Assembly (NCBI GenBank): GCA_910577255.1
Contig: CAJTMH010000004.1
Location: 99,505 to 163,504 of the forward strand
Reading direction: 5' to 3'
DNA length: 64,000 nt
Source: an uncultured Duncaniella sp.
GTDB lineage: Bacteria > Bacteroidota > Bacteroidia > Bacteroidales > Muribaculaceae
Positions 3,700 through 63,998 of this stretch are shown piece after piece; positions within the stretch are counted from its first letter, which is position 1; each line of letters starts with the position of its first letter. A model generated the notes under the pieces. It did not search any database, was not told the origin of the DNA, and saw only the letters and a list, made by a program, of their open reading frames with translations. Position numbers and translations under genes: made by a program.

Positions 3700-6600
3700 T
3701 CAGATCCAGACTTTTAACACCTTTCCATTGCTCAAGCGCACAATGTAGAATGTATTGGTGGCCAATCGGAACTCTTCAGAATCAGACATATCATGACGAT
3801 CGGTAATCTTTATGCCATTCAAATCATAGATATAGCATGACAGTCCCGAGCCATTTACCACTTTGAGAGTAGTGCCTTCGACAAATATTTTAACCTCATC
3901 AAAGTCTGCGCCTTCAATCCCGGAAAAACCATCTTCCGAAACAGAAAAACTCAATGTGGCTCCATACAGAGTAGTCCCGGATTCCGTTTTGACAAACGCC
4001 CTCACGGCATAATTACCCTTTGACAACTCTCCACTCTTAAATGTATACTGCATTGACTCGTCAGTAGTGACTGTAATTACTTGCTGCGGAGCATACATAC
4101 GTGCCGACTGGGCTCCGAGTGCCCAATACTCATATCCTTGACTCACGATAGCCTCCGAACCAGCCACACAGTAACCGCACATTACCAGTGCATTGTTTTC
4201 CCTGTCGGTTCTGAATACGGTATAGACTGTTGCAGGATAATAGATGAATTCAGACTCCGTCCGGAAAGTTTCCCAATTATCGGAGGCGTAAATCTCATCA
4301 TGATAACGCACGGCGGTGCGATATTGATAGTCAGTATTAGGTTCAAGCATACCATTCACAAGAGAAACTGAAATCGATCCATCATCCTGCTTCACACCTT
4401 TAGTAAATGCGGGGGCAGAATCCCAACCTTTCATCTGCTTCCATTGGAAACCAAATTCAGCCGAGCTGTATGAATCACAGTCGATTTCCCCATTCATCGT
4501 CGCAGAGCGGTTAGATATGTTAGAGACATCGGACGTAAGAGTTGAAATAGCCAACGTGGTAAAACTACGCATGTTAGAATATAAACGTCCACTCTCTTTT
4601 GTCTCGATAAAACTTCTGCAATAATATGTTATACCCGGAGTTAGCTCGTTTATTAATTCCCTGCCGGATTTATCATCAGAAACAACCACGTCACTTCCGA
4701 TTTCAATTCCTGCCGAAACAAATGTGGCATCTCCATAGTTGGAAGACCAGCCAATCAAAGCAGCAGTCTGGGAAACCTCACCCAAAGTAATGGTCGAAGT
4801 CACAGCTGACGTCCTGAAGGAAAAAGCAGAGCCTGATGAATCAGCGTGCCATGACATCTCCTCTCCATTAACCTTAGCAAAAATCGCGACATTATACTGG
4901 CTACCGGGGATAAGATTCACAAGTTCCTGTTCGCCGGTATAAGGTAAAATTTCCCCATTGTTCAACCGATACTGTACATCCGAAATTTCTGCATCTCCGG
5001 AATCAAACGTCACTTTCATTTTTGCTTTTGTCTGTGTGATTCCAGAAAACGACACAATTACATTAACCGGCAAAGTCCTATACTCAAACCATGAATAATC
5101 CCAATCAACTTTTGACAGAGGACAATATCGTTCGTTCACAAGGCCTCTGAACCTAATATTATATTGTTCGTTGGGCGCGAGATTATTTAGCGTCAATGTA
5201 TTTCCACAAATCGAATAAGGTTGTGTATCATTTACAGAATTTGCAAGAGCATACTCAATTTGAGAAATAACCGCATCGCCGTCCTGCGAAGCATCAAGCT
5301 CTAAGGATATAGATGTTTGTGTGATTTTTTTGACTGTTGCAGTTATTGTAGCTCTGTCAGTTCCTGCAAAATTCCAAGTTGAATTTTTGGAACTTGTATA
5401 ATATACTTTGTCGCCATCAATTACAGCATATACCCTCCATCTGATTCCCAGACCGGGACATAATTGCGTGGCCACAGCCTTTAACACTTTATCGTCTGTA
5501 GGAATGGCAGGCATATCAATAATATCTGATTTCACATAGCTATCGGCTGATTCGAAGAAGCCGTCTGAATCAATGTAATATTCAAAGCCATAATCAATTG
5601 ACGCGTCATCATCTGTCTCTGACAATGTTGCGGCAAATGTCACAGTTGTTTGTGTGAACGAATCGGAATTACAGTTGAGGAAATATGTGTCCAACGTAGT
5701 AAATTCGAGTATGTCAGAATATATGATATCACCACCTGCAGGCTGAATATAAGTTCTTGCCTGGTATGTGGCGCCCATTTCAAGATTCTTCTTAACACAA
5801 GTATAATCCGAGTCATTTCCTGCATCTTCCACCTCTTCCCAATCAGGACTCTCTTTTTTTCTAAACTGCATTCCCCGCTGATATATGTTAGCATCCCCAA
5901 AGATAACATTACCTGACAAAATTGCCTGATGCTGAGACACTTTTAATAGCTCAGGCTTGTTTGCTATGATAGGTAATGTAGTAAACACCGATGCCTCACT
6001 ATATACTTGACCAAGATTTTCAATATCTGTATAAAAGCGGACTTCATAAGAAACATCAGGTTTCAATCTTGACAAACCGTAGGATAGGGTTGAGGATACA
6101 TCGTTGAATGCGATATTTGACCATGTGCTGCCACTTTGTTCTTTGAATTCCAGCCCGGAAGACAAGATAACAGCATCACCGTTGTTTACACTACATGAGA
6201 CTTTCGCCGATGCCTGTGTTACATTATCTATCGTCATTTCCTCAAATGTAACACCCAATGTTTCGAATTCAATCAGCTGGCTTGAGCCGTTAGTCCAACG
6301 TATCGACAGCGGGCTTTCAAAATTAGGCACAGATTCGACATAATAACCATAAACGGATTTAGGATGTAGGTTATTTAATGTCAATGGAGCACCATCAGCA
6401 GGAATTTTTGTCGATATCTCGGAAAATTCACTGACATTGGGGATCTTGAGATTCCAAATTCCGCCAAAACATGGCCAACTTGGAGAGCCGCCTGCTAAAT
6501 CTGTTTCAAATTTGAGCTTATGAACCCCTTGAGGGACAACTACGGTGATCGTTTCTTTTTCGCTGTCAGACTTCCAGCTTGCATTTGATATATATGCCTT

Positions 6601-8430: not shown

Positions 8431-10515
8431 ATGACCCGACATAATCTCACCACCATATTTATAATCTGCGCAGCGATCCTGAGCGCTATCCCTGCACAAG
8501 CCATACGTGCGCGCCGCGGCATAATGACTGAAACACAGGCCGACGGTTCGACAATCGACATACGCATCCTCGGCGACGAGCACTTCCATGTCACCACAAC
8601 CTCCGACGGCTATCCGCTCGTGGAGGAGGATGGCATCTATTACTATGCCACTACCGACAGCGAAGGACGCCTCGTGGCCTCAACCCTCAAAGCACAGAAT
8701 CCTTCAGCGCGTTCGCTCGAGTCGCAGCTTTTCCTCAGCACCATCGACAAGAGCAAGGTGATGGCGGAGACTGTGGCATCGCGCCGCCAGCGCAACGCTT
8801 CACGAGCCAATGCCGCAATAAACCGCGCTCCGGCGAATATGCTGACCACCACTTTTCCGGGACACGGCGAGCAAAAGGTGCTGGTGATACTCGCCGAATA
8901 CTCCGATGTGAAGTTCTCCATATCCGATCCGTTCGGCTATTTCAATTCCATGCTCAACGAGGAGGGTTTCACCGGCGAAGGAGCCACGGGATCGGCCCGC
9001 GATTATTTCCTTGCCTCATCGGCAGGCCAGTTCTCCCCTATTTTTGATGTTTACGGTCCTGTCACTCTCCCGAACAACCGCACTTATTACGGAAGGAACA
9101 ATATATATGGCGATGACGACAAGGCCCACGAAATGATTATCCACGCCTGTGACATACTCAAAAAGGAGGGTGTGGACTTCACGCAATACGACCGCGACGA
9201 CGACGGCATCATCGACAATGTGTATCTCTTTTATGCCGGACGAGGCGAAGCTACCGGCGGTGGCAAGAATACTGTCTGGCCACATGCGTGGGAAATCTGG
9301 GCCGGAGCGAATGAGACACATATATATGATGGGAAACGCCTCGACCATTACGCCTGCTCCAACGAACTTCTCGACTCCCGAGGAACCGTGGACGGCATAG
9401 GTACTTTCTGCCATGAGTTCTCACATGTGCTCGGACTTCCCGACCTTTACTATACCGGCGACGGTGATTATGAGGAATATTGCACCCCCGACACATGGTC
9501 GATACTCGACTACGGCCCTTACAACAACAATAGCCGCACACCGCCACTGTATTCATCGTTTGAACGCATGTCGATGGGCTGGCTCACACCTGTCAAGATA
9601 AGCCGCGCAGCCAATATGACCCTCACCCCCATAGCCGACAATATCGCCTACATGGTGGAAACAGACAAGGAGAATGAGTTTTTCCTCTTTGAAAACCGCC
9701 AGACATCAGGATGGGACAAATATCTTGAGGGGAGCGGTATGCTTGTGTGGCATATCGACTACAATTCCTCACTATGGCATGACAATGAGGTCAACAACAC
9801 GGCCAATCATCAAAACGTGGATGTGGTAGAGGCAACAGCCCGCACCGACTATCAAGCTGCCGCGTCAGACGCGTTCCCCGGTCCCGGCAAAGTAACCTCG
9901 TTCACATACTCAACCACTCCGCGATTCGCGTCATGGAGCGGCAAAAACCCGGGATTCCCAATCACCGGCATCGCCCTTGCCGCCAACGGCAATGTGACTT
10001 TTAAAGCCGCCGAGGGAGCCGCTCTCTACATAGCTGCCCCAACGCCACTCAAAGCATCGGAGATTGAATCGGGCTCATTCACAGCCAACTGGGAAAGTGT
10101 GGCAGATGCTGAGCGCTACCTCATAACCCTCACTGACGAGACTTCAGGAAAGACACTGCTGACTAACGTGGATGCCGGCACTTCGGGCTGCCACACCATC
10201 ACGGGACTTACCCCGGACAACACCTACTCCTACACGGTGCGCTCGGTGGGCAACACTGTGGTGAGCTCTCCGTCGGCAAAAATGACGGTGACCACATCCG
10301 ACCTCTCGGACATAGACTCCGTGACCATTGACCGCAAGGGGGAAATCTCAGTCCGCGACAGGCATATAATAATCTCCGGCTCTGAGGAGGAGGTCGAAAT
10401 CTTCACGCTCCAGGGTATACGGATATACCGAGGCCAGGAACGTGAAATAGCTGTACGTCCGGGGCTCTATGTGGTGGCCATCGGAGGTCATGCCGAAAAG
10501 GTGGCGGTGAAATAA
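8431..10515 (+). CDS. M6-family (immune inhibitor A-like) zinc metalloprotease, T9SS cargo
   Basis: HEFSHVLGLPDLY (HExxH...D) zinc motif and signal peptide MTRHNLTTIFIICAAILSAIPAQA. C-terminal FN3-like domain plus CTD (...GLYVVAIGGHAEKVAVK). Start set at 8431 so the CDS clears the tRNA. Confidence 0.8.
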   Translation: MTRHNLTTIFIICAAILSAIPAQAIRARRGIMTETQADGSTIDIRILGDEHFHVTTTSDGYPLVEEDGIYYYATTDSEGRLVASTLKAQNPSARSLESQLFLSTIDKSKVMAETVASRRQRNASRANAAINRAPANMLTTTFPGHGEQKVLVILAEYSDVKFSISDPFGYFNSMLNEEGFTGEGATGSARDYFLASSAGQFSPIFDVYGPVTLPNNRTYYGRNNIYGDDDKAHEMIIHACDILKKEGVDFTQYDRDDDGIIDNVYLFYAGRGEATGGGKNTVWPHAWEIWAGANETHIYDGKRLDHYACSNELLDSRGTVDGIGTFCHEFSHVLGLPDLYYTGDGDYEEYCTPDTWSILDYGPYNNNSRTPPLYSSFERMSMGWLTPVKISRAANMTLTPIADNIAYMVETDKENEFFLFENRQTSGWDKYLEGSGMLVWHIDYNSSLWHDNEVNNTANHQNVDVVEATARTDYQAAASDAFPGPGKVTSFTYSTTPRFASWSGKNPGFPITGIALAANGNVTFKAAEGAALYIAAPTPLKASEIESGSFTANWESVADAERYLITLTDETSGKTLLTNVDAGTSGCHTITGLTPDNTYSYTVRSVGNTVVSSPSAKMTVTTSDLSDIDSVTIDRKGEISVRDRHIIISGSEEEVEIFTLQGIRIYRGQEREIAVRPGLYVVAIGGHAEKVAVK

Positions 10516-19359: not shown

Positions 19360-20580
19360 ATGCGATTCATCAACCTTCTAAAAATAGCACTGCGCGCGCT
19401 CAACAACAATAAGCTCCGCTGCTTCCTGACCATGCTCGGCATCATTATTGGCGTGGCATCGGTCATCACCATGCTCGCCATAGGACAGGGGTCGAAAAAC
19501 AGCATCAAAGCCCAGATCTCAGAGATGGGCTCCAACATGCTCATGATCCACCCCGGCACCGGGCAGCGAGGCGGAGTGAGACAGAGCGCCGATGACATGC
19601 AGACACTTAAGGTGGAGGACTACGAAACCCTCCGCGACAATGCCAAATACATAACGGCTATCTCACCACAAGTCAGCAGCTCAGGTCAGTTTATAAACGG
19701 CAACAACAACTATCCGTCGTCGCTCTCAGGCATTACCCCTGATTACCTCGACATCCGCAAACTCAAAGTGAAGTCGGGAGAGATGTTCACCGACCATGAC
19801 ATTGCCACAGCAGCCAAAGTCTGTGTCCTCGGACAGACCGTGGTCGATAATCTTTTCCCAAATGGTGAAAACCCCATTGGGAAGGTTGTGCGATTCAACA
19901 AAATCCCGCTGACTGTCATCGGAGTCCTTGAGGAGAAAGGCACCAACTCCATGGGCCAGGACCAGGACGACGTGGTGCTTGCCCCCTACACCACAGTCAT
20001 GAAACGCGTTCTTGCCATAGACTATATACAAGGATTATTTGCCAGTGCCATCGACGAGAACCTCAGCGAGGAAGCATCCGACGAAATCACTGCCATCCTG
20101 CGCTCCAACCACAAGCTTAAAGACGACGCCGACAACGACTTCAACATACGCTCGCAGCAGGAACTCAGCGAGATGATGAGCTCCACCTCCGACATGATGA
20201 CCGTGCTGCTTGCATGCATAGCCGGCATATCACTTTTGGTAGGAGGCATCGGCATCATGAACATCATGTATGTGTCAGTCACCGAACGCACACGCGAAAT
20301 AGGGCTCCGCATGTCAATCGGGGCACGCGGCATCGACATCCTGTCGCAATTTCTCATCGAGGCTGTAATCATAAGCGTGACAGGCGGCATCATCGGCATC
20401 ATAATGGGAATCATCGCTTCCTGGCTTGTCAATGTCATAGCACAGTGGCCCATTTACATCCAGATTTATTCGGTGGTGCTCTCGTTTGTGGTCTGCACTG
20501 TCACCGGAATATTCTTCGGATGGTATCCGGCTCGCAAAGCCGCTAATCTTGACCCCATCGAAGCCATCCGCTACGAATAA
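19360..20580 (+). CDS. ABC transporter permease (MacB periplasmic domain plus FtsX-like TM domain)
   Basis: 406 aa. N-terminal TM, large periplasmic domain and C-terminal FtsX-type helices. Confidence 0.9.
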   Translation: MRFINLLKIALRALNNNKLRCFLTMLGIIIGVASVITMLAIGQGSKNSIKAQISEMGSNMLMIHPGTGQRGGVRQSADDMQTLKVEDYETLRDNAKYITAISPQVSSSGQFINGNNNYPSSLSGITPDYLDIRKLKVKSGEMFTDHDIATAAKVCVLGQTVVDNLFPNGENPIGKVVRFNKIPLTVIGVLEEKGTNSMGQDQDDVVLAPYTTVMKRVLAIDYIQGLFASAIDENLSEEASDEITAILRSNHKLKDDADNDFNIRSQQELSEMMSSTSDMMTVLLACIAGISLLVGGIGIMNIMYVSVTERTREIGLRMSIGARGIDILSQFLIEAVIISVTGGIIGIIMGIIASWLVNVIAQWPIYIQIYSVVLSFVVCTVTGIFFGWYPARKAANLDPIEAIRYE

Positions 20581-30795: not shown

Positions 30796-31017
30796 AACTA
30801 TCTCTTCAGACCGACAACGGCAAACCAACTCTCGCTCAGATAGTCTGACCGGCCACTCCGGTCAACGCCATCTCCCTCCACATCTCTTGCAGAAAAAGTA
30901 ATCTCTATCTCACTTAAGGATATTATACTCAAGATTGTGGATAGACGACACCAAACGGTATCATCTATTACAAAAGGTCATGCAGGATTGCAACGCCTCA
31001 CACAATTATAATCCGCA

Positions 31018-31174: not shown

Positions 31175-31570
31175 CTACTCCAGCCAGCGGTCAACGGTGG
31201 CGATGGCTTCGGTGCGGAAGGCGTTGAAGGCTTCCCACTCGGCTTCGTAATCCCCGGCTTTAGCTATGTCTGGGTTCTTAAACAGCTCTATCTGGTGGGT
31301 CTTGATGGCATCCTCCTCCGTCTGGCTGTAACGGCTGCGGATTATGCCGTTTATCAGGCTGTCACGGCTCATATCGCCAGAGGCTATCAGTGTGCCACCG
31401 TCAGGCTCGGTGCCGGTATAGGCATAGCCTGTAACAGGCTCAGGGGCTTCCTCTCCGTCCCTGACCTCAGGCACATAATCCTCTATGACTTCCTCGTTGA
31501 GGTAAGCCATATAACGGTTGTCATCATATTTGACGAGCGTCTTGCGCTCGGTGTAGATTGCTTTATTCAT
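31175..31570 (-). CDS. hypothetical acidic phage protein (last gene of the tail/DGR operon)
   Basis: Start trimmed to MNKAIYTERK (31570), 2 nt after the RT stop. 131 aa, acidic, no motif recognised. Not Avd-like (not basic, not obviously helical). Confidence 0.5.
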   Translation of the reverse strand: MNKAIYTERKTLVKYDDNRYMAYLNEEVIEDYVPEVRDGEEAPEPVTGYAYTGTEPDGGTLIASGDMSRDSLINGIIRSRYSQTEEDAIKTHQIELFKNPDIAKAGDYEAEWEAFNAFRTEAIATVDRWLE

Positions 31571-31572
31571 TG

Positions 31573-33213
31573 TCACGTGAATTTGTAAAACTTCTTGTTT
31601 AACTTGTTGACCTGCTCCATGACCACGGTCGGACATGGGAGGTCAGCCTTGGTAAAGTCTTTTTCGGCTTGGTCGATCATGATAGCTGAACCTGTGTAGG
31701 AATAGTATTCGGCATCCTTTACCGTAGGGGTGCCGTTGCTGTCCTTTTCCCTCTCATAGACATAGCTCTCATGTTCCTCGCCGTCCACCGCCGTTTGAAC
31801 GACGGTTTGCAGTATGCGCTTGTACCGGATCACGAGGCACTTCTTGGGGCGGGTTTTTCGCTCCTGCCTCACGACACCATCCGGGCCGGTGACCTCGGCG
31901 AAGTAGTCTTCGGTTTCAACCTTGCTGTCCTCTATGGCATAGTCGAGCAGCATTATCTTGAAGTTATCCTCCTGCGCCGGATCTTTACAGACAATATCAG
32001 TAAACGGGCGCTTCTGGTCGTAGCGCATACCCTTGAACGGGATGTTGGCACGACGGTTCTTTATGACCTTTCCAAGTCGCTTTTCCATGTTTATATCGAG
32101 TTTTCTTAATAATGTATGCGAATTTGCGTGGGTGGCGAAACCTATACGGCTGGCACATTCCAACCGGGTTTCCTCCGGTGTCATGCCCTTCTTTTTACAT
32201 TTTGCCACCTGCCGACATAGGGCTTTCTTATTGCGCTTGCGAAGGGCGCGGTGGGTATGAAATGAAACATAGCCGCACACGTCTATGCCTCTGCTCCAGA
32301 CCGGGCGCACGTTCCAGTTCCGGTTGACCTCTATCAGATAATCCCGGGCAAGTACCATTATGCACATCTCCGTGACAAGGTGTAAGAATGTCTTGTCACG
32401 ATGGAGCATGACTATATTGTCGGCAAATCTGAAATACTGTATCGGTTCACTTATATAGCGGTCAAACTTGCCGACCATATAAGCCACTCCCCTGCCTAAT
32501 TCATCCGCCTGTTCCTTCGTGCGGCAGGTCACGAGGCTGTCGCTGACATAACGGTTACGCCAATATGCGAGCCTTTCGGGGTCTCCGGCTATACCGAAAA
32601 TCCCTACCGCGTCATGGTCAAACTTGGCTAAAAAGAAATTTGCTAATATCTGCGAGATCTTGACCCCTAAAGGCAGCCCCTGACGGAAGCTGTCGATAAA
32701 TTCATCGAGGAACCGCAACAGTTTTGGGTCTTTGATTTTAGTCCTGACCCGTTCTTTCATCAGGAAATGTGCGATATTCTGGAAATAGTGGTGGGCGTCA
32801 AGCTGAACGAAATACCACGTGCTTTCCGGATCAGTATAAAGCTCCTTGCGCAGCAGGTTGATGAAATCATGGGTGCCGCGTCCCTTGACGCAGGAGCACG
32901 ACCGCCGGATGAACGTGTCGGTAAACAGACGCTCGGTCTGAAGCAGCGGCGCCCACTGGCGCACATGGTCACGCACGGGAAGTTTGCTCACGATCCTGCG
33001 CTTGGGCTCGAAAATCTCCTCGTCCTGATACTCGGAGGTATGCCCGGTGCCGTCCCGGTATTCAGCCAGAAGTTCCATGAGGTTGGCTTTGAGGTTTGCC
33101 GCGAAGCGCTGCACATTGTCGCGCCGCTCTTTATATTCGGCAAAGCCCCGGAAAGCCGCCTCATAGTTCTCGATGGTCTCAATACGAGGAGATATGTATC
33201 CTCGTCGTTTCAT
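31573..33213 (-). CDS. DGR-type reverse transcriptase with ~180-aa C-terminal extension
   Basis: RT motifs: FVQLDAHHYFQNI (motif A Asp), LPLGVKISQILANFFL (the LGxxxSQ signature of DGR RTs) and YFRFADNIVML (motif C, FADN in place of YxDD). Lies adjacent to the TR. Confidence 0.85.
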   Translation of the reverse strand: MKRRGYISPRIETIENYEAAFRGFAEYKERRDNVQRFAANLKANLMELLAEYRDGTGHTSEYQDEEIFEPKRRIVSKLPVRDHVRQWAPLLQTERLFTDTFIRRSCSCVKGRGTHDFINLLRKELYTDPESTWYFVQLDAHHYFQNIAHFLMKERVRTKIKDPKLLRFLDEFIDSFRQGLPLGVKISQILANFFLAKFDHDAVGIFGIAGDPERLAYWRNRYVSDSLVTCRTKEQADELGRGVAYMVGKFDRYISEPIQYFRFADNIVMLHRDKTFLHLVTEMCIMVLARDYLIEVNRNWNVRPVWSRGIDVCGYVSFHTHRALRKRNKKALCRQVAKCKKKGMTPEETRLECASRIGFATHANSHTLLRKLDINMEKRLGKVIKNRRANIPFKGMRYDQKRPFTDIVCKDPAQEDNFKIMLLDYAIEDSKVETEDYFAEVTGPDGVVRQERKTRPKKCLVIRYKRILQTVVQTAVDGEEHESYVYEREKDSNGTPTVKDAEYYSYTGSAIMIDQAEKDFTKADLPCPTVVMEQVNKLNKKFYKFT

Positions 33214-33394
33214 TGTGTCTCGGTGTCATGGGTGTCTTAATGTGTCATTTTGGGTCAAACCGCAGTGTGATCTGCAATTTTCTCTTGCTTCGTTACCGTC
33301 GGCTGGAATCGTTGATTCCATCTACCGGCACTGCCCGCATTTCGTTTGTTTTTCGCCTTGGGGCGAGGCCCTGTCACCCCGCTTCTGGATTGTT

Positions 33395-33516
33395 GAGGGG
33401 CGAGCCGATGTTCGCATTGGCATTCGTGGGAGCGTTGTTCACATTGACCGCTCCTACGCCCGCATTGCCACCGTTGTTGGCGTTGGCGCCGCGAAACACA
33501 GCACGGAAGCCCGAAG
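33395..33516 (-). repeat. DGR template repeat (TR)
   Basis: 122-nt non-coding copy of the target gene 3' segment. In the VR frame it reads SGFRAVFRGANANNGGNAGVGAVNVNNAPTNANANIGSPL, with 10 AAY Asn codons and 24 adenines in total. Confidence 0.8.
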
Positions 33517-33557
33517 ACCGACTCTTGGACGACAGCAGCCCGATTGTTAAATCAACG

Positions 33558-33565
33558 CAAATTTA
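33558..33565 (-). promoter_or_regulatory. -7 promoter box (TAAATTTG) upstream of TR; candidate promoter of the TR-RT transcript
   Basis: Minus strand TAAATTTG lies 42 nt upstream of the TR 5' boundary. Confidence 0.35.
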
Positions 33566-33758
33566 ACACTTTTTCGTCTATCGAGACCGATATAAACATG
33601 GAAATATGTCAATGTTCTCTTTGCCCCCATTGCTGACGGGTGTCGGAACAAGTCCGACACGGGGGCTCCCTACGGTCGCCGGGTGCTTTGCCTTCGGCGC
33701 GTGCCAGGAACACCATGCACACACCGGACACCGGGCACCCTTTGACCTCCTGACCACT

Positions 33759-35234
33759 TTAGGCCACCGCGTAATACTCCGGCTCCAACGAGAACTCCTC
33801 TGCGAAATCGCAGAGGGGAGAGCCGATGTGCGCATAGGCATCCGAGACAGCGTTGTACACATCGACCGCACCACAGCCCGCAGGGCCACCATCGTTCGCA
33901 CTGGCACCACGGAAGACAGCACGGAAGCCCGAAGTGACGTTACCGTTGTTCCAGAAATAGTCACATTGGTAGGTAGATTCACTGCCGCCCGACTGGGTAG
34001 GCCACATCTCAAGATTATCGTAGCTCATCTTTATGATATAGCCGGAAGCGATCGGAGACGTTGATTTCAATACCATCCCGGCGGTGGAACCGTAGGTGTA
34101 GGTTCCATAGATGCTCGGGGTAACCCAATGTCTCATTGACTTGTCGGCATTCGCCTCGCCAAGTTCATCCTCGCTTACACGCCAGATATAGCCGAAGAAG
34201 TTTTTAAGACCGAAGAATACTGGTACTTTGGCGGTGAATACTGTCGTGCCGTCGGCATTAACTATCGGGATCTCTTTCACTCCGAGACCGTCTGCCATAT
34301 CGACGCCGGCGCTCATGTGCAGTATCGGATTATTACCGTTATAATTACTCCAGCTCGTCCAGTCCCAGTTGGTCACACCGGTGCCGAAGCCGCCTTGATA
34401 GAGCCCGTTGGCGTCCTTGTTGGCGTTGAAGGCTGCCTGAACGTTGCGGGTGCCCATGACTATCTCGACAAGGATCTTTACCACGGCTGCGGCTCTCATT
34501 GTGCCCGCAAGCCATCCTGCCCCGTTCTTATGGGCCGCCGCCGCGAACTGGGCGGTGCTTCGGTTCGTGGCGCAATGGCCGAGCAAGGAGCGGTAGGTGT
34601 CATCCCACCCCGAGGTGTTGTTGCCGCCACGGTACTTGACATCATCGTTGATATAGCTGACAAGGGTGTCGGTGTCGCGGTCAAGGGCCGCAAGGCCGGT
34701 GGCGCTGAGAGAGCCCACCGGGATACGGTAGTTGTACTGTCCTTTGATAGGATACAGGCTCACGGCTTCAAACTCAAGATTGCCCTGCGTCCACTTGGCG
34801 AAGTAGAAGGGTTTGCCCCACCCCCACTGATAATGCCCCATGCTTCCGTCGAGCTTGGCGGTCTCGCCATTTGCAAAGCGGTAGTGGTTGGTGGGGTCGA
34901 GCTTGCGCCGGCTGTGGTCGTTCTTGACAAGGTAGCCGCCAAGACCGAGTATATCCTTGAGGTTTTTTAGCATCTCAAGGCTGCCACAATAGGTGGCTGC
35001 CGCAGGGGTGGCGAGGTCTGTGCGCCATACCCTGCCGCACCACGGGGCGTTTGCCATATTGACGGCCGCTGTAAGGTCCATGCACTGGCTGGCGCCGCTT
35101 TTGGTGTCGAAAACCTCTATCTTCTTGTCGGTGGCATCCGTCGAGGCTGCCGGGAGATCGTCTATCTGCTCGCCGGTTTTGTATGCGTCGAGCATCGATA
35201 ACAGGTCCGCTTCCTGTTGTGCTGTTAATGCCAT
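33759..35234 (-). CDS. DGR target protein: tail-tip receptor-binding protein with C-terminal variable (C-type-lectin-like) region
   Basis: 491 aa. The last ~60 aa (..WNNGNVTSGFRAVFRGASANDGGPAGCGAVDVYNAVSDAYAHIGSPLC..) contain the VR. Sits at the distal end of the tail module. Confidence 0.85.
   Translation of the reverse strand: MALTAQQEADLLSMLDAYKTGEQIDDLPAASTDATDKKIEVFDTKSGASQCMDLTAAVNMANAPWCGRVWRTDLATPAAATYCGSLEMLKNLKDILGLGGYLVKNDHSRRKLDPTNHYRFANGETAKLDGSMGHYQWGWGKPFYFAKWTQGNLEFEAVSLYPIKGQYNYRIPVGSLSATGLAALDRDTDTLVSYINDDVKYRGGNNTSGWDDTYRSLLGHCATNRSTAQFAAAAHKNGAGWLAGTMRAAAVVKILVEIVMGTRNVQAAFNANKDANGLYQGGFGTGVTNWDWTSWSNYNGNNPILHMSAGVDMADGLGVKEIPIVNADGTTVFTAKVPVFFGLKNFFGYIWRVSEDELGEANADKSMRHWVTPSIYGTYTYGSTAGMVLKSTSPIASGYIIKMSYDNLEMWPTQSGGSESTYQCDYFWNNGNVTSGFRAVFRGASANDGGPAGCGAVDVYNAVSDAYAHIGSPLCDFAEEFSLEPEYYAVA
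33797..33816 (-). other. 8-bp stem / 4-nt loop hairpin immediately 3' of VR
   Basis: CCTCTGCG-AAAT-CGCAGAGG is a perfect inverted repeat. It overlaps the last 4 nt of TR/VR homology and is absent from the TR copy. Confidence 0.5.
33813..33934 (-). repeat. DGR variable repeat (VR)
   Basis: Ungapped alignment to TR (offset +418) has 98/122 identities. 12 of the 24 mismatches are at TR adenines. Confidence 0.8.
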
Positions 35235-57237: not shown

Positions 57238-57307
57238 TTGGTCTTTGCCGTGGTGAAGGGGTGTCTCCCCTGCTCTACCTTTGCATCATCACCAACGACA
57301 AATCATC

Positions 57308-57952
57308 ATGGCAAAAAACAAATACCATCAAATTCTTGCCCGTATCCTTTCGGAGGGCAAGACACAGACCAACCGCAAGGGAGATATACTCTATCTGATC
57401 AACCAGTCACTGTCTCTTACACCGGGCGACCTCCTCGATATTTTTGAGGAACACGGCATTGCCCGGAAGAAACTGCGCACCGAGCTTCAGCTTTTCATGC
57501 AGGGTGAAAGTTCAGTGGAGCGATACCGCGAGGTCGGCATCAACTGGTGGGATTACTGCGGCTCCATACTCATCAATTCCTATCCCACTTACTTCGAGAA
57601 GCTGCCCCCGCTCATCGACCGTATCAACCGGGAAAAGCGCAATTCAAAGAATTATGTGCTGTTCCTCAGTGAGACCAACGCCCAATCAAATCAAACGCCG
57701 TGCCTGTCGCTTGTGCAGTTCCAGATCGACGAGGGCGAGCTTGTACTAACCGCATACCAGCGCAGCTCTGACGCAAGTCTCGGTCTTCCCGCCGACATAT
57801 ACCATCTCTACCTTATGGCAAAGCACATTGATGTGCCGCTCAAGTCCATCACGCTGTTCCTCGGCAATGTGCATATCTACGAAAATAATATTGACAACAC
57901 CCGCAAGCTGCTCTCCGGCAACGATACGGTAAGATTCAAACTCAACGTATGA
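57308..57952 (+). CDS. thymidylate-synthase-family pyrimidine C5 transferase, predicted cytosine-nucleotide specific (dCMP hydroxymethylase/methylase-like)
   Basis: Aligns by eye to E. coli ThyA: NRKGD (DRTGTG), TPCLSLVQFQ (catalytic Cys132), YQRSSDASLGLPADIY (QRSCDVFLGLPFNIASY) and GNVHIYENN (GDTHLYSNH). Asp163 replaces ThyA Asn177. Confidence 0.75.
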   Translation: MAKNKYHQILARILSEGKTQTNRKGDILYLINQSLSLTPGDLLDIFEEHGIARKKLRTELQLFMQGESSVERYREVGINWWDYCGSILINSYPTYFEKLPPLIDRINREKRNSKNYVLFLSETNAQSNQTPCLSLVQFQIDEGELVLTAYQRSSDASLGLPADIYHLYLMAKHIDVPLKSITLFLGNVHIYENNIDNTRKLLSGNDTVRFKLNV

Positions 57953-58803
57953 GCAAACTGTATATGTCCGCGCCATTGCCTTTCGTAGGGCAAAAGCGCA
58001 TGTTCGCCAAGCACTTCATAGAGGTTATAAAGCAATATCCCGCCGGCACCGTATTCGTTGACCTGTTCGGAGGCTCCGGATTATTGTCGCATATCACAAA
58101 ACACTTCCATCCCGATTCAACAGTGATATATAATGACTTTGACGGATACCGCCGGCGCATCGACAACATATCGCGCACCAACCATCTGCTGTCATTGATC
58201 CGTCCCATCGCATCCCGGTTCCCGCGCCATAAGCCGGTGACCGGCGATGCCCGGGAGGAGATATTCCGCATACTGGAATCGGAGGAGCGAGAATCAGGAT
58301 TCCTTGATTTCATCACCATTTCGTCATCGTTGATGTTCTCAATGAAATACAAGATGTCAATCCCTGAGATGCGCAAGGAAGTTCTTTACAATAATGTCCG
58401 CAAATCCGGGTATGCCGAATGCCCGGATTATCTCGAAGGGCTTGAGATAACCTCGTGTGACTACAAAGAGCTTTTCGAAAGATATCGAAACATCCCGGGA
58501 GTTGTATTCCTTGTGGACCCACCGTACCTCTCAACTGATGTCGGCACCTACCGTATGTATTGGCGACTCGCCGATTACCTCGATGTGCTGTCGGTACTCC
58601 CGAGGCATAATTTCATCTATTTCACGTCCGAAAAATCATGCATTGTGGAGCTGTGCGAGTGGATGGGTCGGAACCCGGCTCTCGGCAACCCGTTTGCCCG
58701 ATGCCGGCGCAAGGAATTCAACGCCACCATGAATTATAATGCAGGATACACCGATATTATGCTTTTCACAGACCCGGGCGCGCAACCATCACGCCAAATT
58801 TAG
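57949..58803 (+). CDS. DNA N6-adenine methyltransferase (Dam-like, alpha-class motif order)
   Basis: Motif I FVDLFGGSG near the N-terminus and motif IV DPPY downstream. The ATG overlaps the upstream stop (ATGA). Confidence 0.8.
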   Translation: MSKLYMSAPLPFVGQKRMFAKHFIEVIKQYPAGTVFVDLFGGSGLLSHITKHFHPDSTVIYNDFDGYRRRIDNISRTNHLLSLIRPIASRFPRHKPVTGDAREEIFRILESEERESGFLDFITISSSLMFSMKYKMSIPEMRKEVLYNNVRKSGYAECPDYLEGLEITSCDYKELFERYRNIPGVVFLVDPPYLSTDVGTYRMYWRLADYLDVLSVLPRHNFIYFTSEKSCIVELCEWMGRNPALGNPFARCRRKEFNATMNYNAGYTDIMLFTDPGAQPSRQI

Positions 58804-60175: not shown

Positions 60176-60370
60176 TCATCGATGTTTCTTTGGTTCCGGT
60201 TTATACGGTCTGATGTCGAGGATCATTTCGCAGCTCACTGTCACTCTGCCGCTCCCCTCGCACTGGAGGCACGTGTGGGTCTCCCCTTCCTCGTCACCGG
60301 GGACTCTGCCCGAGCCTTTGCAGACCCGGCAGAGTGCCACTTTCGGAGGACGTGATATTTCTCGTTTCAT
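60176..60370 (-). CDS. mini zinc-finger protein with two DnaJ-type CxxCxGxG motifs
   Basis: Start set at MKREISRPP. Motifs CRVCKGSGRV and CLQCEGSGRV. 64 aa. Confidence 0.55.
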   Translation of the reverse strand: MKREISRPPKVALCRVCKGSGRVPGDEEGETHTCLQCEGSGRVTVSCEMILDIRPYKPEPKKHR

Positions 60371-60888
60371 ACTACGCTCTCCTCCTTTTTGGGTTCGACG
60401 AAGAAGGTCTCCTCCTGCACCACCGAGATGCCGCAACGTGCGAGGTTGGCTGCCACTGTCTCATCTTCTCGGTCGGCGAGAAGTTTGTCCTTGGCTATCT
60501 CCTCGGTGGCACGGATATGACCGGGCAGGAACTCTTTGATGAGCTGCAGTGCGCTTGCCCATGTGAACCCCTTGAGAGTTTTGAGCTTTGGGGTACCGGT
60601 GCGGAACCCGATGGTGCCATGCACCATGTCGAGGCTCTTTTTCTTTGAGAACAGCTCCGACTGGTTTTCGGTGGCGAAAGACTGAAGTGTCTCAAACGCT
60701 TCGTCCTGTGTGGTCTGCAGCTGTGAGAGTCTTTCCTGATGCTTCTCTCGAATACGTGCGCACTGGAGCTCGATGTCTGCAGTGATTTTCGCACGTTCTG
60801 CGTCTGCCTTGGCGTAAACTGCGAAGGCTTCCTCGGCCGCGTCTTTTGACACGCCGGTGATGATTGTCTTTTTTGCTCTTTTTGCCAT
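60367..60888 (-). CDS. gam: Mu Gam-like host-nuclease inhibitor protein
   Basis: Start set at MAKRAKK. Coiled-coil N-terminal half and a beta-rich C-terminal half colinear with Mu Gam (173 aa). Confidence 0.75.
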   Translation of the reverse strand: MAKRAKKTIITGVSKDAAEEAFAVYAKADAERAKITADIELQCARIREKHQERLSQLQTTQDEAFETLQSFATENQSELFSKKKSLDMVHGTIGFRTGTPKLKTLKGFTWASALQLIKEFLPGHIRATEEIAKDKLLADREDETVAANLARCGISVVQEETFFVEPKKEESVV

Positions 60889-60910
60889 ATAGTTTTGTTG
60901 TTGATGGTGA

Positions 60911-61081
60911 TTATTCATCTATCGGGAACACCGTGTCGGTGTCATCGCTGTATTCGGCTATGTCAGCCTGACTCGTGGTCCATTCAGCAAGTTCACGCAT
61001 GAGGTTTATATAATCCTCGTTCTCCATGTCGGAGGTATGGAGCTGAATGAAGTTCTTGATTTGTTGTATTACCCTTTTCAT
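60911..61081 (-). CDS. small acidic hypothetical protein (56 aa; below the ORF-track cutoff)
   Basis: The ATG at 61081-61079 lies 1 nt after the upstream stop. Reads MKRVIQQIKNFIQLHTSDMENEDYINLMRELAEWTTSQADIAEYSDDTDTVFPIDE*. Confidence 0.4.
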   Translation of the reverse strand: MKRVIQQIKNFIQLHTSDMENEDYINLMRELAEWTTSQADIAEYSDDTDTVFPIDE

Positions 61082-62853: not shown

Positions 62854-63129
62854 TTATTTACGTTTTGAGGTTTTATGGGGAAACTTGTAACACCATCCCA
62901 TGATTTTTTCCAACTTGATGCCTTCGGGCAAAAGGCCAAATGTATTTACCTTTACAATACCCAACTTAGGACATACACGGCCTAAATGAAGGTCAATATA
63001 CTTGCCGTCCTTAAAGACCACTCGAATTTCACGACGCTTGTTTGCTTTCGTTAACTCTGACGGATCCTTCAGCACTCTACGGCTCCCGTCCGCAAACGTG
63101 ACTTTAATCTTGTAATCCATCATAGTCAC
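62854..63129 (-). CDS. hypothetical early protein
   Basis: 91-aa ORF with a 4-nt overlap with the upstream ATPase gene. Confidence 0.4.
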   Translation of the reverse strand: MTMMDYKIKVTFADGSRRVLKDPSELTKANKRREIRVVFKDGKYIDLHLGRVCPKLGIVKVNTFGLLPEGIKLEKIMGWCYKFPHKTSKRK

Positions 63130-63998
63130 GCCATTTTAAGTTTTTCAATTTCGGTATACACACGGCGCAGACCGCCGGCACTCTTTCTCACGATCACACC
63201 GATATCGGTGCCTTCCGGAGCGTTGACCTTAGCCACAACGCGAGCTTGCTCTTTCAGGAATGCCTCACGTTCACGTCCGTCATCCGGGGTTATCCTGCTG
63301 TAACGGTCTCCGTAACGGCTGAACATCTCGGCATAACCAACCTTGTTGCACTCGATGGAGCGGTTGATTTTCGCCTTGAGTCCGTCGGCGCCCATCATAT
63401 ACCATGCGCAGCACCGCTCGGTGGCGTTCCAAAGTGCCTTCAATTCGAGGAAGGCTTCATACTGGAGGTCGCCGGCTTCGTCAAGTATGATCAGCGGGGT
63501 GTCTATTGAGCGAAGGTAGAACACAAGGTCGGCATACACATCCGAGTATGACCCTCTGGTGTTGGAACCGAACTCGGTCGCTATCTTGCGAACGAGCTTC
63601 AGCTTGGTCTTGACCTGCGAACAGTCGATGTAGACCGCATTCGGATGGGTCTTGACATAATGCCGGGCGGTAAAGGTCTTGCCGATATTGGGAAGGTCAC
63701 ACAACAGACCGCTCAACCCACGCTCCTGTATGAATTCGAGCTGCGTAGTGATATACTTGAAGGTCTCGGTCTTGGCTGCCTTCCATTCTATCCCGCCACG
63801 GAGATTGACCCCGAGCTTGCGGGCTATGCTCATCCAGTTGCCGTCGCTAAGGACACGCTCGGTCTGCCCGTTCTTGATGGAGCTGTATGCCGAGGTTGTC
63901 ACCCCGAGTGAAGCGGCGTGTTTGGCATCGCTCGGGTAATTTGTCCGGGCTGCCCTTATCGCTTCTGCGATTTTGTTTCTGATTTCTGTTGTAATCAT
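63126..63998 (-). CDS. MuB-like AAA+ transposition ATPase with N-terminal HTH
   Basis: HTH (AASLGVTTSAYSSIKNG), Walker A LPNIGKT and Walker B LIILDEAGD. 290 aa, in the position expected downstream of a transposase gene. Confidence 0.75.
   Translation of the reverse strand: MITTEIRNKIAEAIRAARTNYPSDAKHAASLGVTTSAYSSIKNGQTERVLSDGNWMSIARKLGVNLRGGIEWKAAKTETFKYITTQLEFIQERGLSGLLCDLPNIGKTFTARHYVKTHPNAVYIDCSQVKTKLKLVRKIATEFGSNTRGSYSDVYADLVFYLRSIDTPLIILDEAGDLQYEAFLELKALWNATERCCAWYMMGADGLKAKINRSIECNKVGYAEMFSRYGDRYSRITPDDGREREAFLKEQARVVAKVNAPEGTDIGVIVRKSAGGLRRVYTEIEKLKMA

Follow-up and report, generated by a model that had tools for sequence, protein, structure and literature searches.

Among the described diversity-generating retroelements (DGRs), those of Bordetella phage BPP-1 and of Hankyphage, a prophage of Bacteroides and Phocaeicola, come closest to the element considered here. 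In Hankyphage the template repeats (TRs) were reported to be identical and invariant, and the variable repeats (VRs) to differ at adenines only (PMC6199706, PMC12135933). Use of a TR in trans within one genome is known from the DGR loci of Thiohalocapsa PB-PSB1 (PMC10907252), and remote targets have been described in Treponema and others (PMC5758913). Non-A-to-N substitutions were found in 23% of DGRs, with at most 11 in one target, and the survey ascribed them to infidelity of the reverse transcriptase (RT), to integration errors or to independent mutation (PMC5758913). In this study, we analyzed a stretch of 64,000 nucleotides from contig CAJTMH010000004.1 (hereafter the window), which carries at the right end of a Mu-like prophage a DGR whose VR differs from the adjacent TR at as many non-adenine as adenine positions. 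We propose, with a probability of about 0.7, that these mismatches are the signature of a foreign template, delivered by retrohoming in trans from a co-resident, related phage.

The TR (33395-33516, minus strand) and the VR (33813-33934, minus strand) lie 418 nt apart; their gapless alignment spans 122 nt at 80.3% identity (blastn E value of 7e-28). Twenty-four of the 122 positions are mismatched, 12 at adenines of the TR and 12 at other bases. Eight of the 12 non-adenine mismatches fall at third codon positions of the target open reading frame (ORF); six of these eight are synonymous when taken singly (GTG/GTC, TTT/TTC, CGC/CGT, GGC/GGT, GCC/GCG and TCG/TCT), and the remaining four non-adenine mismatches lie in GTA/TGT and CCC/GTC. 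The counts, codon positions and codon pairs given in an earlier note on this sequence were all exactly reproduced. Read in the frame of the VR, the TR is SGFRAVFRGANANNGGNAGVGAVNVNNAPTNANANIGSPL, an AAY-rich template. Past the 122-nt core, the TR continues with AACAAT (33389-33394) and the VR with TGCGAT. Because all relatives show this same difference, and because it makes up one half of a hairpin that only the VR has, we regard it as a fixed distinction between TR and VR and not as a product of mutagenesis; a repeat extended by these 6 nt, which would have added three adenine mismatches, was dropped for the same reason. A second copy of the TR or VR was found neither in the window (blastn, word size 7) nor, as judged from L049-L052, in the remaining ∼6 kb of the prophage and the host flank at that far end.

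Relatives of the cassette were gathered by RT protein search, exact-protein look-ups and a pattern scan of metagenomes. In the relatives compared on other backbones, TR and VR differed at adenines only. At all twelve discordant positions the window VR agrees with the base common to the TR and VR of most relatives, so it is the window TR that is the unusual allele. We call this allele W; it is identical in L013-L016, L041, L054 and L055. As judged from its mismatches to the different TRs, the window VR carries the non-adenine alleles of a second type, L6. Compared with the L6b allele, which is the TR of L040, L059, L061, L062, L067 and L071, it had 10 adenine mismatches and no others (hypergeometric P of 7e-9), as opposed to 12 adenine and 12 other mismatches to the W TR in cis. 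An adenine-only relation of TR and VR is therefore absent from the adjacent pair and present between the window VR and the L6b TR, as it is within 14 related cassettes; matching a non-adjacent TR at every non-adenine site is one of the features of a DGR acting in trans. The earlier note had inferred that the VR was not written from the TR next to it, and this was right. The second, better TR that it suggested looking for, perfect at non-A sites, exists in a related phage, but none was found in the window or the rest of the prophage.

The same pattern was seen in other copies of the cassette. Given as adenine/other mismatches to the W TR and then to the L6b TR, the VRs of L015 (17/12 and 15/0), L019 (9/13 and 6/0), L020 (13/13 and 10/0), L012 (9/13 and 6/0), L018 (10/12 and 8/0), L054 (12/13 and 9/0) and L055 (11/13 and 8/0) all fitted L6b at every non-adenine position. 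The VR of L013 (13/11 and 11/3) is a mosaic, with three W-type positions (GGA, CCC; 9344 and 9366-9367, corresponding to 33870 and 33847-33848 of the window) in an otherwise L6-type VR, which points to two contributing templates or to patchy repair. When the VR of each cassette was compared with its own TR, 14 of 23 distinct TR/VR pairs had 0 non-adenine mismatches and nine had 11-21, with none between; all nine mismatched pairs were on the backbone of the window phage. Drift, to which the earlier note had attributed the synonymous differences, would give a continuum, and these counts do not form one.

The W TR is itself used. On the window backbone, L016 has a VR with eight adenine and no other mismatches to its own W TR, so the TR in cis is functional. 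Altogether the VRs of L016, L034 and L068 have zero non-adenine mismatches to the W TR, and matched W-type TR/VR pairs were found in L016, in OFGJ01000186.1 (L034 and L041) and, on a diverged backbone, in L058. The case of L068 is reciprocal to that of the window. Over 4,641 nt, this L6-type phage departs from L063 at 28 positions only, every one inside the VR, and its VR has six adenine and no other mismatches to the W TR, compared with four adenine and 22 other mismatches to its own TR. Hence, writing from a foreign template that is limited to the VR occurs in both directions.

We compared the two TR alleles and their carriers. The L6 type is marked by the adenine-free word GCTGTCTTCCGTGGTGCC, followed by an AAY-rich repeat that ends in CCCCTCAACAAT; the L6b TR reads ...GTC TTC CGT GGT GCC AAT ACG AAC AAT GGT GGC CAT ... 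TGT GGT ... GTC ... TCT, and 22 of its 118 positions are adenines. Between W and L6b there are 17 differences, spread over 12 codons in the VR frame, and eight of these codons are synonymous. In a non-coding TR, such a preponderance of synonymous differences is expected only under long-standing selection acting on the protein written from it, and both W and L6b therefore look like established working templates rather than products of drift. The L6 and window lineages differ at 10-30% of positions in the flanks of VR and TR, and what they have in common is the VR's 5' end, its GC-rich 3' end and the hairpin that follows. The L6 phage (RT P0273) is listed in 1,340 blocks of public assemblies and has the same host genus; in many mouse-gut samples it is found at one fixed position of a contig of ∼280 kb, and these samples belong to projects that also yielded the window-type phage (BATT21-1, PRJEB7759, ERZ272552xx).

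TRs substituted at adenine sites only were also observed. L012, L017, L018 and L021 have nine such substitutions (9698-9825, corresponding to 33389-33516 of the window), L019 and L020 have one, and the six L6 prophages L063-L066, L068 and L069 have seven (1194-1321). The VRs of L063-L066 and L069 follow their own eroded TR (5-7 adenine and 0 other mismatches), and that of L068 follows the W TR instead. The template is thus not invariant in this DGR family; either cDNA occasionally homes into the TR or the VR converts the TR.

We next consider how the VR varies between copies of the prophage. L013, which comes from another assembly and has the same insertion site and host flank, shows 14 differences from the window along 21,641 nt, every one of them within the VR at 33827-33901; at the other end of the prophage there was no difference in 10,873 nt. 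All 11 differences between L054 and the window, and all 10 between L055 and the window, over ∼11 kb each, were in the VR, as were 15 of the 18 differences of L015. Variation of the VR between otherwise identical genomes, at template-adenine positions, is a defining property of DGRs. Here the template whose adenines matter is L6b: pairwise VR differences on this backbone fell on L6b adenine sites only, except for the three sites specific to L013, and all 15 VR differences between the window and L015 are at such sites (P of about 5e-14). At several VR sites, two copies carry two different non-A bases, and each must have arisen independently from an adenine-bearing template of the L6 type.

These observations bear on the view of the earlier note that the cassette is frozen or drifting, that is, that TR and VR decayed apart or that a single recombination was followed by no further activity. 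In its favor, the window cassette, with twelve non-adenine mismatches, lies above the highest number (11) reported among 372 surveyed DGRs (PMC5758913), the TR module is of recombinant origin, and motif C of the RT (residues 263-266; 32416-32427 of the window) is FADN instead of the canonical YxDD. A dead RT was nevertheless ruled out as a candidate explanation, since 123 of 125 homologues have FADN (the other two have FADD), including those of cassettes with clean adenine-only patterns. Moreover, the VR is the only variable site among otherwise identical prophages, it varies at the adenine sites of one TR allele bar the three L013-specific sites, mismatch counts are bimodal, and L016 and L034 have matched VRs written with this same RT and TR. 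These findings contradict the view of a frozen or drifting cassette, which we consider very improbable. The adenine-specific VR diversification that the earlier note had named as a check was seen, though across assemblies and not in reads.

The edges of the exchanged tracts help to distinguish cDNA from DNA as the donor. At the 3' edge of the VR, and overlapping it, lies a perfect 8-bp hairpin, CCTCTGCG-ATTT-CGCAGAGG (33797-33816, minus strand), whose first four bases are inside the 122-nt core. Its predicted DNA fold has an energy of −8.9 kcal/mol (z score of −2.96, with none of 200 shuffled sequences as good), compared with a z score of −0.03 for the TR counterpart, which lacks a hairpin. 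The hairpin is kept in all relatives, where the loop base alone varies between T and A, and by analogy with BPP-1 it is a candidate target-recognition element. In the VR-limited cross-type cases, no flanking marker was transferred. At the 3' edge, conversion includes the last TR-specific site (TCT/TCG) but not the loop base of the hairpin, which lies 12 nt past it and is T in W and A in L6, a pattern that holds in both directions; at the 5' edge, the identity shared by the two lineages spans ∼17 nt. These edges are those expected of TR-derived cDNA; TR and VR part after CCCCTC, the end of the TR. They are unlike those expected of DNA-DNA exchange between the target genes, which have longer stretches of identity in common further downstream.

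Homologous recombination between DNA molecules could, in principle, shuffle VRs or VR/TR combinations, with an L6 VR as partner in short-patch gene conversion or with an unsampled phage that combines the window backbone with an L6-type TR in cis. Recombination is real in this region. In L019 and L020, an L6-type tract runs from the 3' hairpin loop of the VR ∼135 nt downstream (9407-9540, corresponding to 33674-33807 of the window); this is an ordinary homologous exchange with an L6 phage and requires that the two lineages meet in one cell. The window backbone is also a mosaic, in which the 3' part of the spacer (from position 9551 onward in the window-oriented numbering), the TR, the RT-17 RNA and the 5' end of the RT gene are nearly identical to L058, and L003 is the nearly identical counterpart of the 150 nt that precede the VR. 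The suggestion of the earlier note that TR or VR was acquired by recombination from a relative thus comes close to our view, and it is borne out in so far as the TR module has a recombinant history; it leaves the continuing variation at adenine sites unexplained, and the VR fits neither of the flank donors, L003 or L058. To account for the VR, recombination would require both crossovers within ∼17 nt at the 5' side and ∼11 nt at the 3' side in every VR-limited case and in both directions, with no flanking marker transferred alongside, though the flanks differ at 10-30% of positions.

Sampling by exact RT identity would miss phages with the window backbone and another TR module. We found no such phage with an L6 TR in cis among ∼14 contigs with a readable TR, which came from the exact-RT look-up, the metagenome scan and an RT-independent look-up via a 361-amino-acid neighbor; in the last of these, 13 contigs were read and three TRs were added, all of the W type. 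Overall, we regard DNA-DNA recombination as an unlikely source of the VR pattern, though less so than a frozen cassette.

Two further observations were made at or near these junctions. L012, L017, L018 and L021 contain near 9278-9284 (about 33933 of the window) an extra TCG codon at the 5' junction of the VR, giving a target of 492 amino acids. The L6 repeats, TR and VR alike, have a matching TTCGTCGGGC at their 5' end, and the extra codon resembles a scar of the import of an L6 tract. Single-copy forms were found in L033 (1985-3421), L037 (5746-7182, minus strand), L042 and L070, in which the target ORF runs into an unmutated TR-like repeat and the spacer and one repeat are gone; the 478-amino-acid proteins are P0247, P0258, P0259 and P0269. 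These forms represent either a real deletion between VR and TR or a collapse of the repeats during assembly. L033, L037 and L042 were considered as orphan TR-RT donors in trans and were ruled out, as in them the target ORF (478 amino acids) leads directly into the only repeat copy.

Metagenome assemblers might also have threaded an L6 VR into contigs of the window phage. Most of the sequences are metagenome assemblies, and collapse of VR and TR may have occurred in the contigs just described. However, the k-mers named in the contig labels (k105-k141) far exceed the length of the shared tract edges (∼17 and ∼11 nt), no fewer than 10 assemblies, made by different projects and assemblers, show the pattern, each in a distinct VR, and the L-type VRs on the window backbone are not copies of the L6 phages' own VRs among those compared. 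An assembly artefact is the least probable of the explanations considered, and we give it hardly any weight.

We thus favor retrohoming in trans. The window VR would last have been overwritten by adenine-mutagenised cDNA made from the TR of an L6-lineage phage and not from the adjacent TR. Both phages would have been in one cell, as co-resident prophages or by superinfection, and the TR RNA and RT of either phage could home into the VR of either phage. The mismatch pattern, the perfect fit to the foreign TR, the VR-only variation, the reciprocal case and the use of the TR in cis are observations; the presence of both phages in one cell, cDNA as the vehicle and the choice of RT belong to the model. 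The 12 non-adenine mismatches would then be fixed allelic differences between two TR lineages. We infer co-residence from the shared projects, the shared host genus and the one recombination tract.

Several points weigh against this model. No genome or sample with a mismatched cassette was found to contain an L6 prophage or TR as well, and sample accessions gave the same projects and host genus only. The comparators are nearly all metagenome assemblies or metagenome-assembled genomes, that is, consensus sequences. The sampling of the window backbone was partly tied to an identical RT protein, so that a phage with this backbone and an L6 TR in cis could be missed. The mosaic VR of L013 requires a mosaic or patch-repair event, and L-type VRs outnumber W-type VRs on the window backbone for no reason that the model provides.

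Beyond the window itself, we lean slightly towards a wider picture in which two transposable phages of Muribaculum routinely cross-write the VRs of their tail proteins by retrohoming in trans, with the template set by the shared hairpin and not by adjacency. Loose targeting would also overwrite TRs, producing their adenine-only erosion, and templates would be a communal resource or a weapon among co-infecting phages.

By its parts, the element is a DGR. Along the direction of transcription (minus strand), it comprises the target gene with the VR, a spacer, the TR, the RT-17 RNA, the RT gene and an ORF of 131 amino acids; the RT is beside the repeats, the VR is at the 3' end of a coding target, the TR is non-coding and near the RT, and VR and TR have distinct 3' ends (initiation of mutagenic homing sequences IMH and IMH*), with a hairpin downstream of the VR whose function is assigned by analogy with BPP-1. 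The target gene (33759-35234, minus strand) encodes a tail protein (PHROG 5302, E value of 8e-55) of 491 amino acids with a C-terminal variable domain like those of C-type lectins, and the VR lies within its last 42 codons. The protein had no Pfam match and no match in the PDB by sequence, and the informative search was the fold search only. An AlphaFold model (pLDDT of 91.8) had as its top PDB matches the DGR variable proteins TaqVP (5vf4, E value of 1e-5) and Mtd (1yu0-1yu4), and the target is accordingly predicted to display the VR on a C-type-lectin-like fold. Clusters of the target protein at 90% identity (P0190, P0204, P0215, P0223 and P0227) have from hundreds up to 18,023 distinct member sequences, consistent with pervasive VR diversification across the tail-protein family.

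Between the stop codon of the target gene and the TR lies a non-coding spacer of 242 nt (33517-33758, minus strand), whose 3' part belongs to the segment nearly identical to L058. A structured RNA of the Rfam family RT-17 (RF03020) is located between the TR and the RT gene (33268-33370, minus strand); cmscan matched it over its full length with 54.7 bits, compared with a gathering score of 40.4, and an E value of 7e-9. It has the same position in L001, L003, L006, L009 and L040 and probably forms the structured portion of the template RNA.

The RT (31573-33213, minus strand) has 546 amino acids and matches Pfam RVT_1 and PHROG 1423 (E value of 3e-74). Its motif B is GLPLGVKISQ (residues 179-188); a GxxxSQ motif B marks DGR-type RTs. 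Contigs that encode exactly this RT protein are present in 585 blocks of public assemblies, its best match in a phage database was an unannotated contig with 43% identity, and a homology search with the L6 RT added no closer cluster. A C-terminal extension of ∼200 amino acids might stand in for an accessory protein. The acidic 131-amino-acid ORF directly after the RT gene (31175-31570, minus strand) was called in every related locus; it has no Pfam or PHROG match and is not recognizable as a member of any family, Avd included. It is the only conserved small ORF beside the RT, and Pfam and PHROG searches revealed no Avd-type accessory gene there.

The cassette is at the right end of a Mu-like transposable prophage of ∼39 kb (31008-64000 of the window, minus strand), with the right end at 31008 and the left end ∼6 kb past the window. 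The window is identical through 31007 to contig L073, which carries the empty-site allele of the host locus, an M23 peptidase gene adjoining those for thioredoxin and DnaE, and this places the prophage junction at 31007/31008. A 5-bp duplication, CAATT, is present at both junctions of prophage and host (31003-31012 of the window; compare L073 around 19700-20080 and L050 around 3985-4000). PHROG matches within the prophage include a MuB-like transposition protein (63126-63998), Gam (60367-60918), a Mu-type portal, Mu F, terminase, capsid and tape measure proteins. L012-L021 are the same phage with differing flanks, and hence many insertion sites. The source records give the host as 'uncultured Muribaculum sp.', and their names point to the mouse gut. 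A megablast search of the DGR region against 50,697 deposited phage records gave no match.

Genes for thymidylate synthase and a Dam-like methyltransferase directly follow the DGR on the same strand in L6-type phages (L057 8243-9479; L062-L071 3724-4641). In the window phage they are at 57281-58803, ∼24 kb from the DGR and on the opposite strand, indicating that the window and L6 lineages are separated by a large rearrangement.

Tools for DGR detection and calls of DGR activity take non-adenine mismatches as noise or decay, and such filters may discard real biology. A cassette in which 50% of the mismatches are at non-adenine positions can be fully active, its VR being served by the template of another element. 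If retrohoming between phages is true, alleles of a receptor-binding scaffold would move between phages too diverged for ordinary recombination, and the non-adenine positions of the TR would travel with them. This bears on how directionality and target specificity of DGRs are enforced by the IMH and the hairpin, and the adenine-only erosion of TRs challenges the usual assumption of an invariant template. The system is common in Muribaculum of the mouse gut and therefore accessible to experiment. In the literature on inter-phage or non-cognate DGR templating, we found no report of two complete phage DGRs that cross-write their VRs, nor one of adenine-only erosion of natural TRs.

The DGR described here resembles that of phage BPP-1, which consists of the VR in mtd, the TR, brt and avd. 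Both have a VR at the C-terminal end of a tail protein with a C-type-lectin-like fold, and the predicted structure of the target matches Mtd; in both, the TR is downstream and adjoined by the RT gene, the template is AAY-rich, variation is adenine-specific and a hairpin is found 3' of the VR only. Unlike BPP-1, the window DGR has no detected Avd homologue, its RT of 546 amino acids has a long C-terminal extension and the FADN motif C, an RT-17 RNA lies between TR and RT, the VR obeys a non-adjacent TR, and TRs vary within the family. With Hankyphage it shares a Mu-like prophage of Bacteroidales with random insertion sites and a 5-bp target duplication, and a tail-protein DGR at the right end in genomes that can match except for the VR (PMC6199706, PMC12135933). 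The window phage differs in its host, Muribaculum of the mouse gut, and in lacking a nucleotide match to deposited phages, and the TR alleles of its family differ, cross-write and erode. In contrast to the non-A substitutions surveyed previously, all 12 in the window are explained by a defined alternative TR allele. Targets known to be diversified in trans either have no intact TR and RT of their own or belong to the regulon of one element in one genome (PMC10907252, PMC5758913). Here, each phage has a complete and functional cassette, the foreign TR is on a separate mobile element, and VRs are written in both directions.

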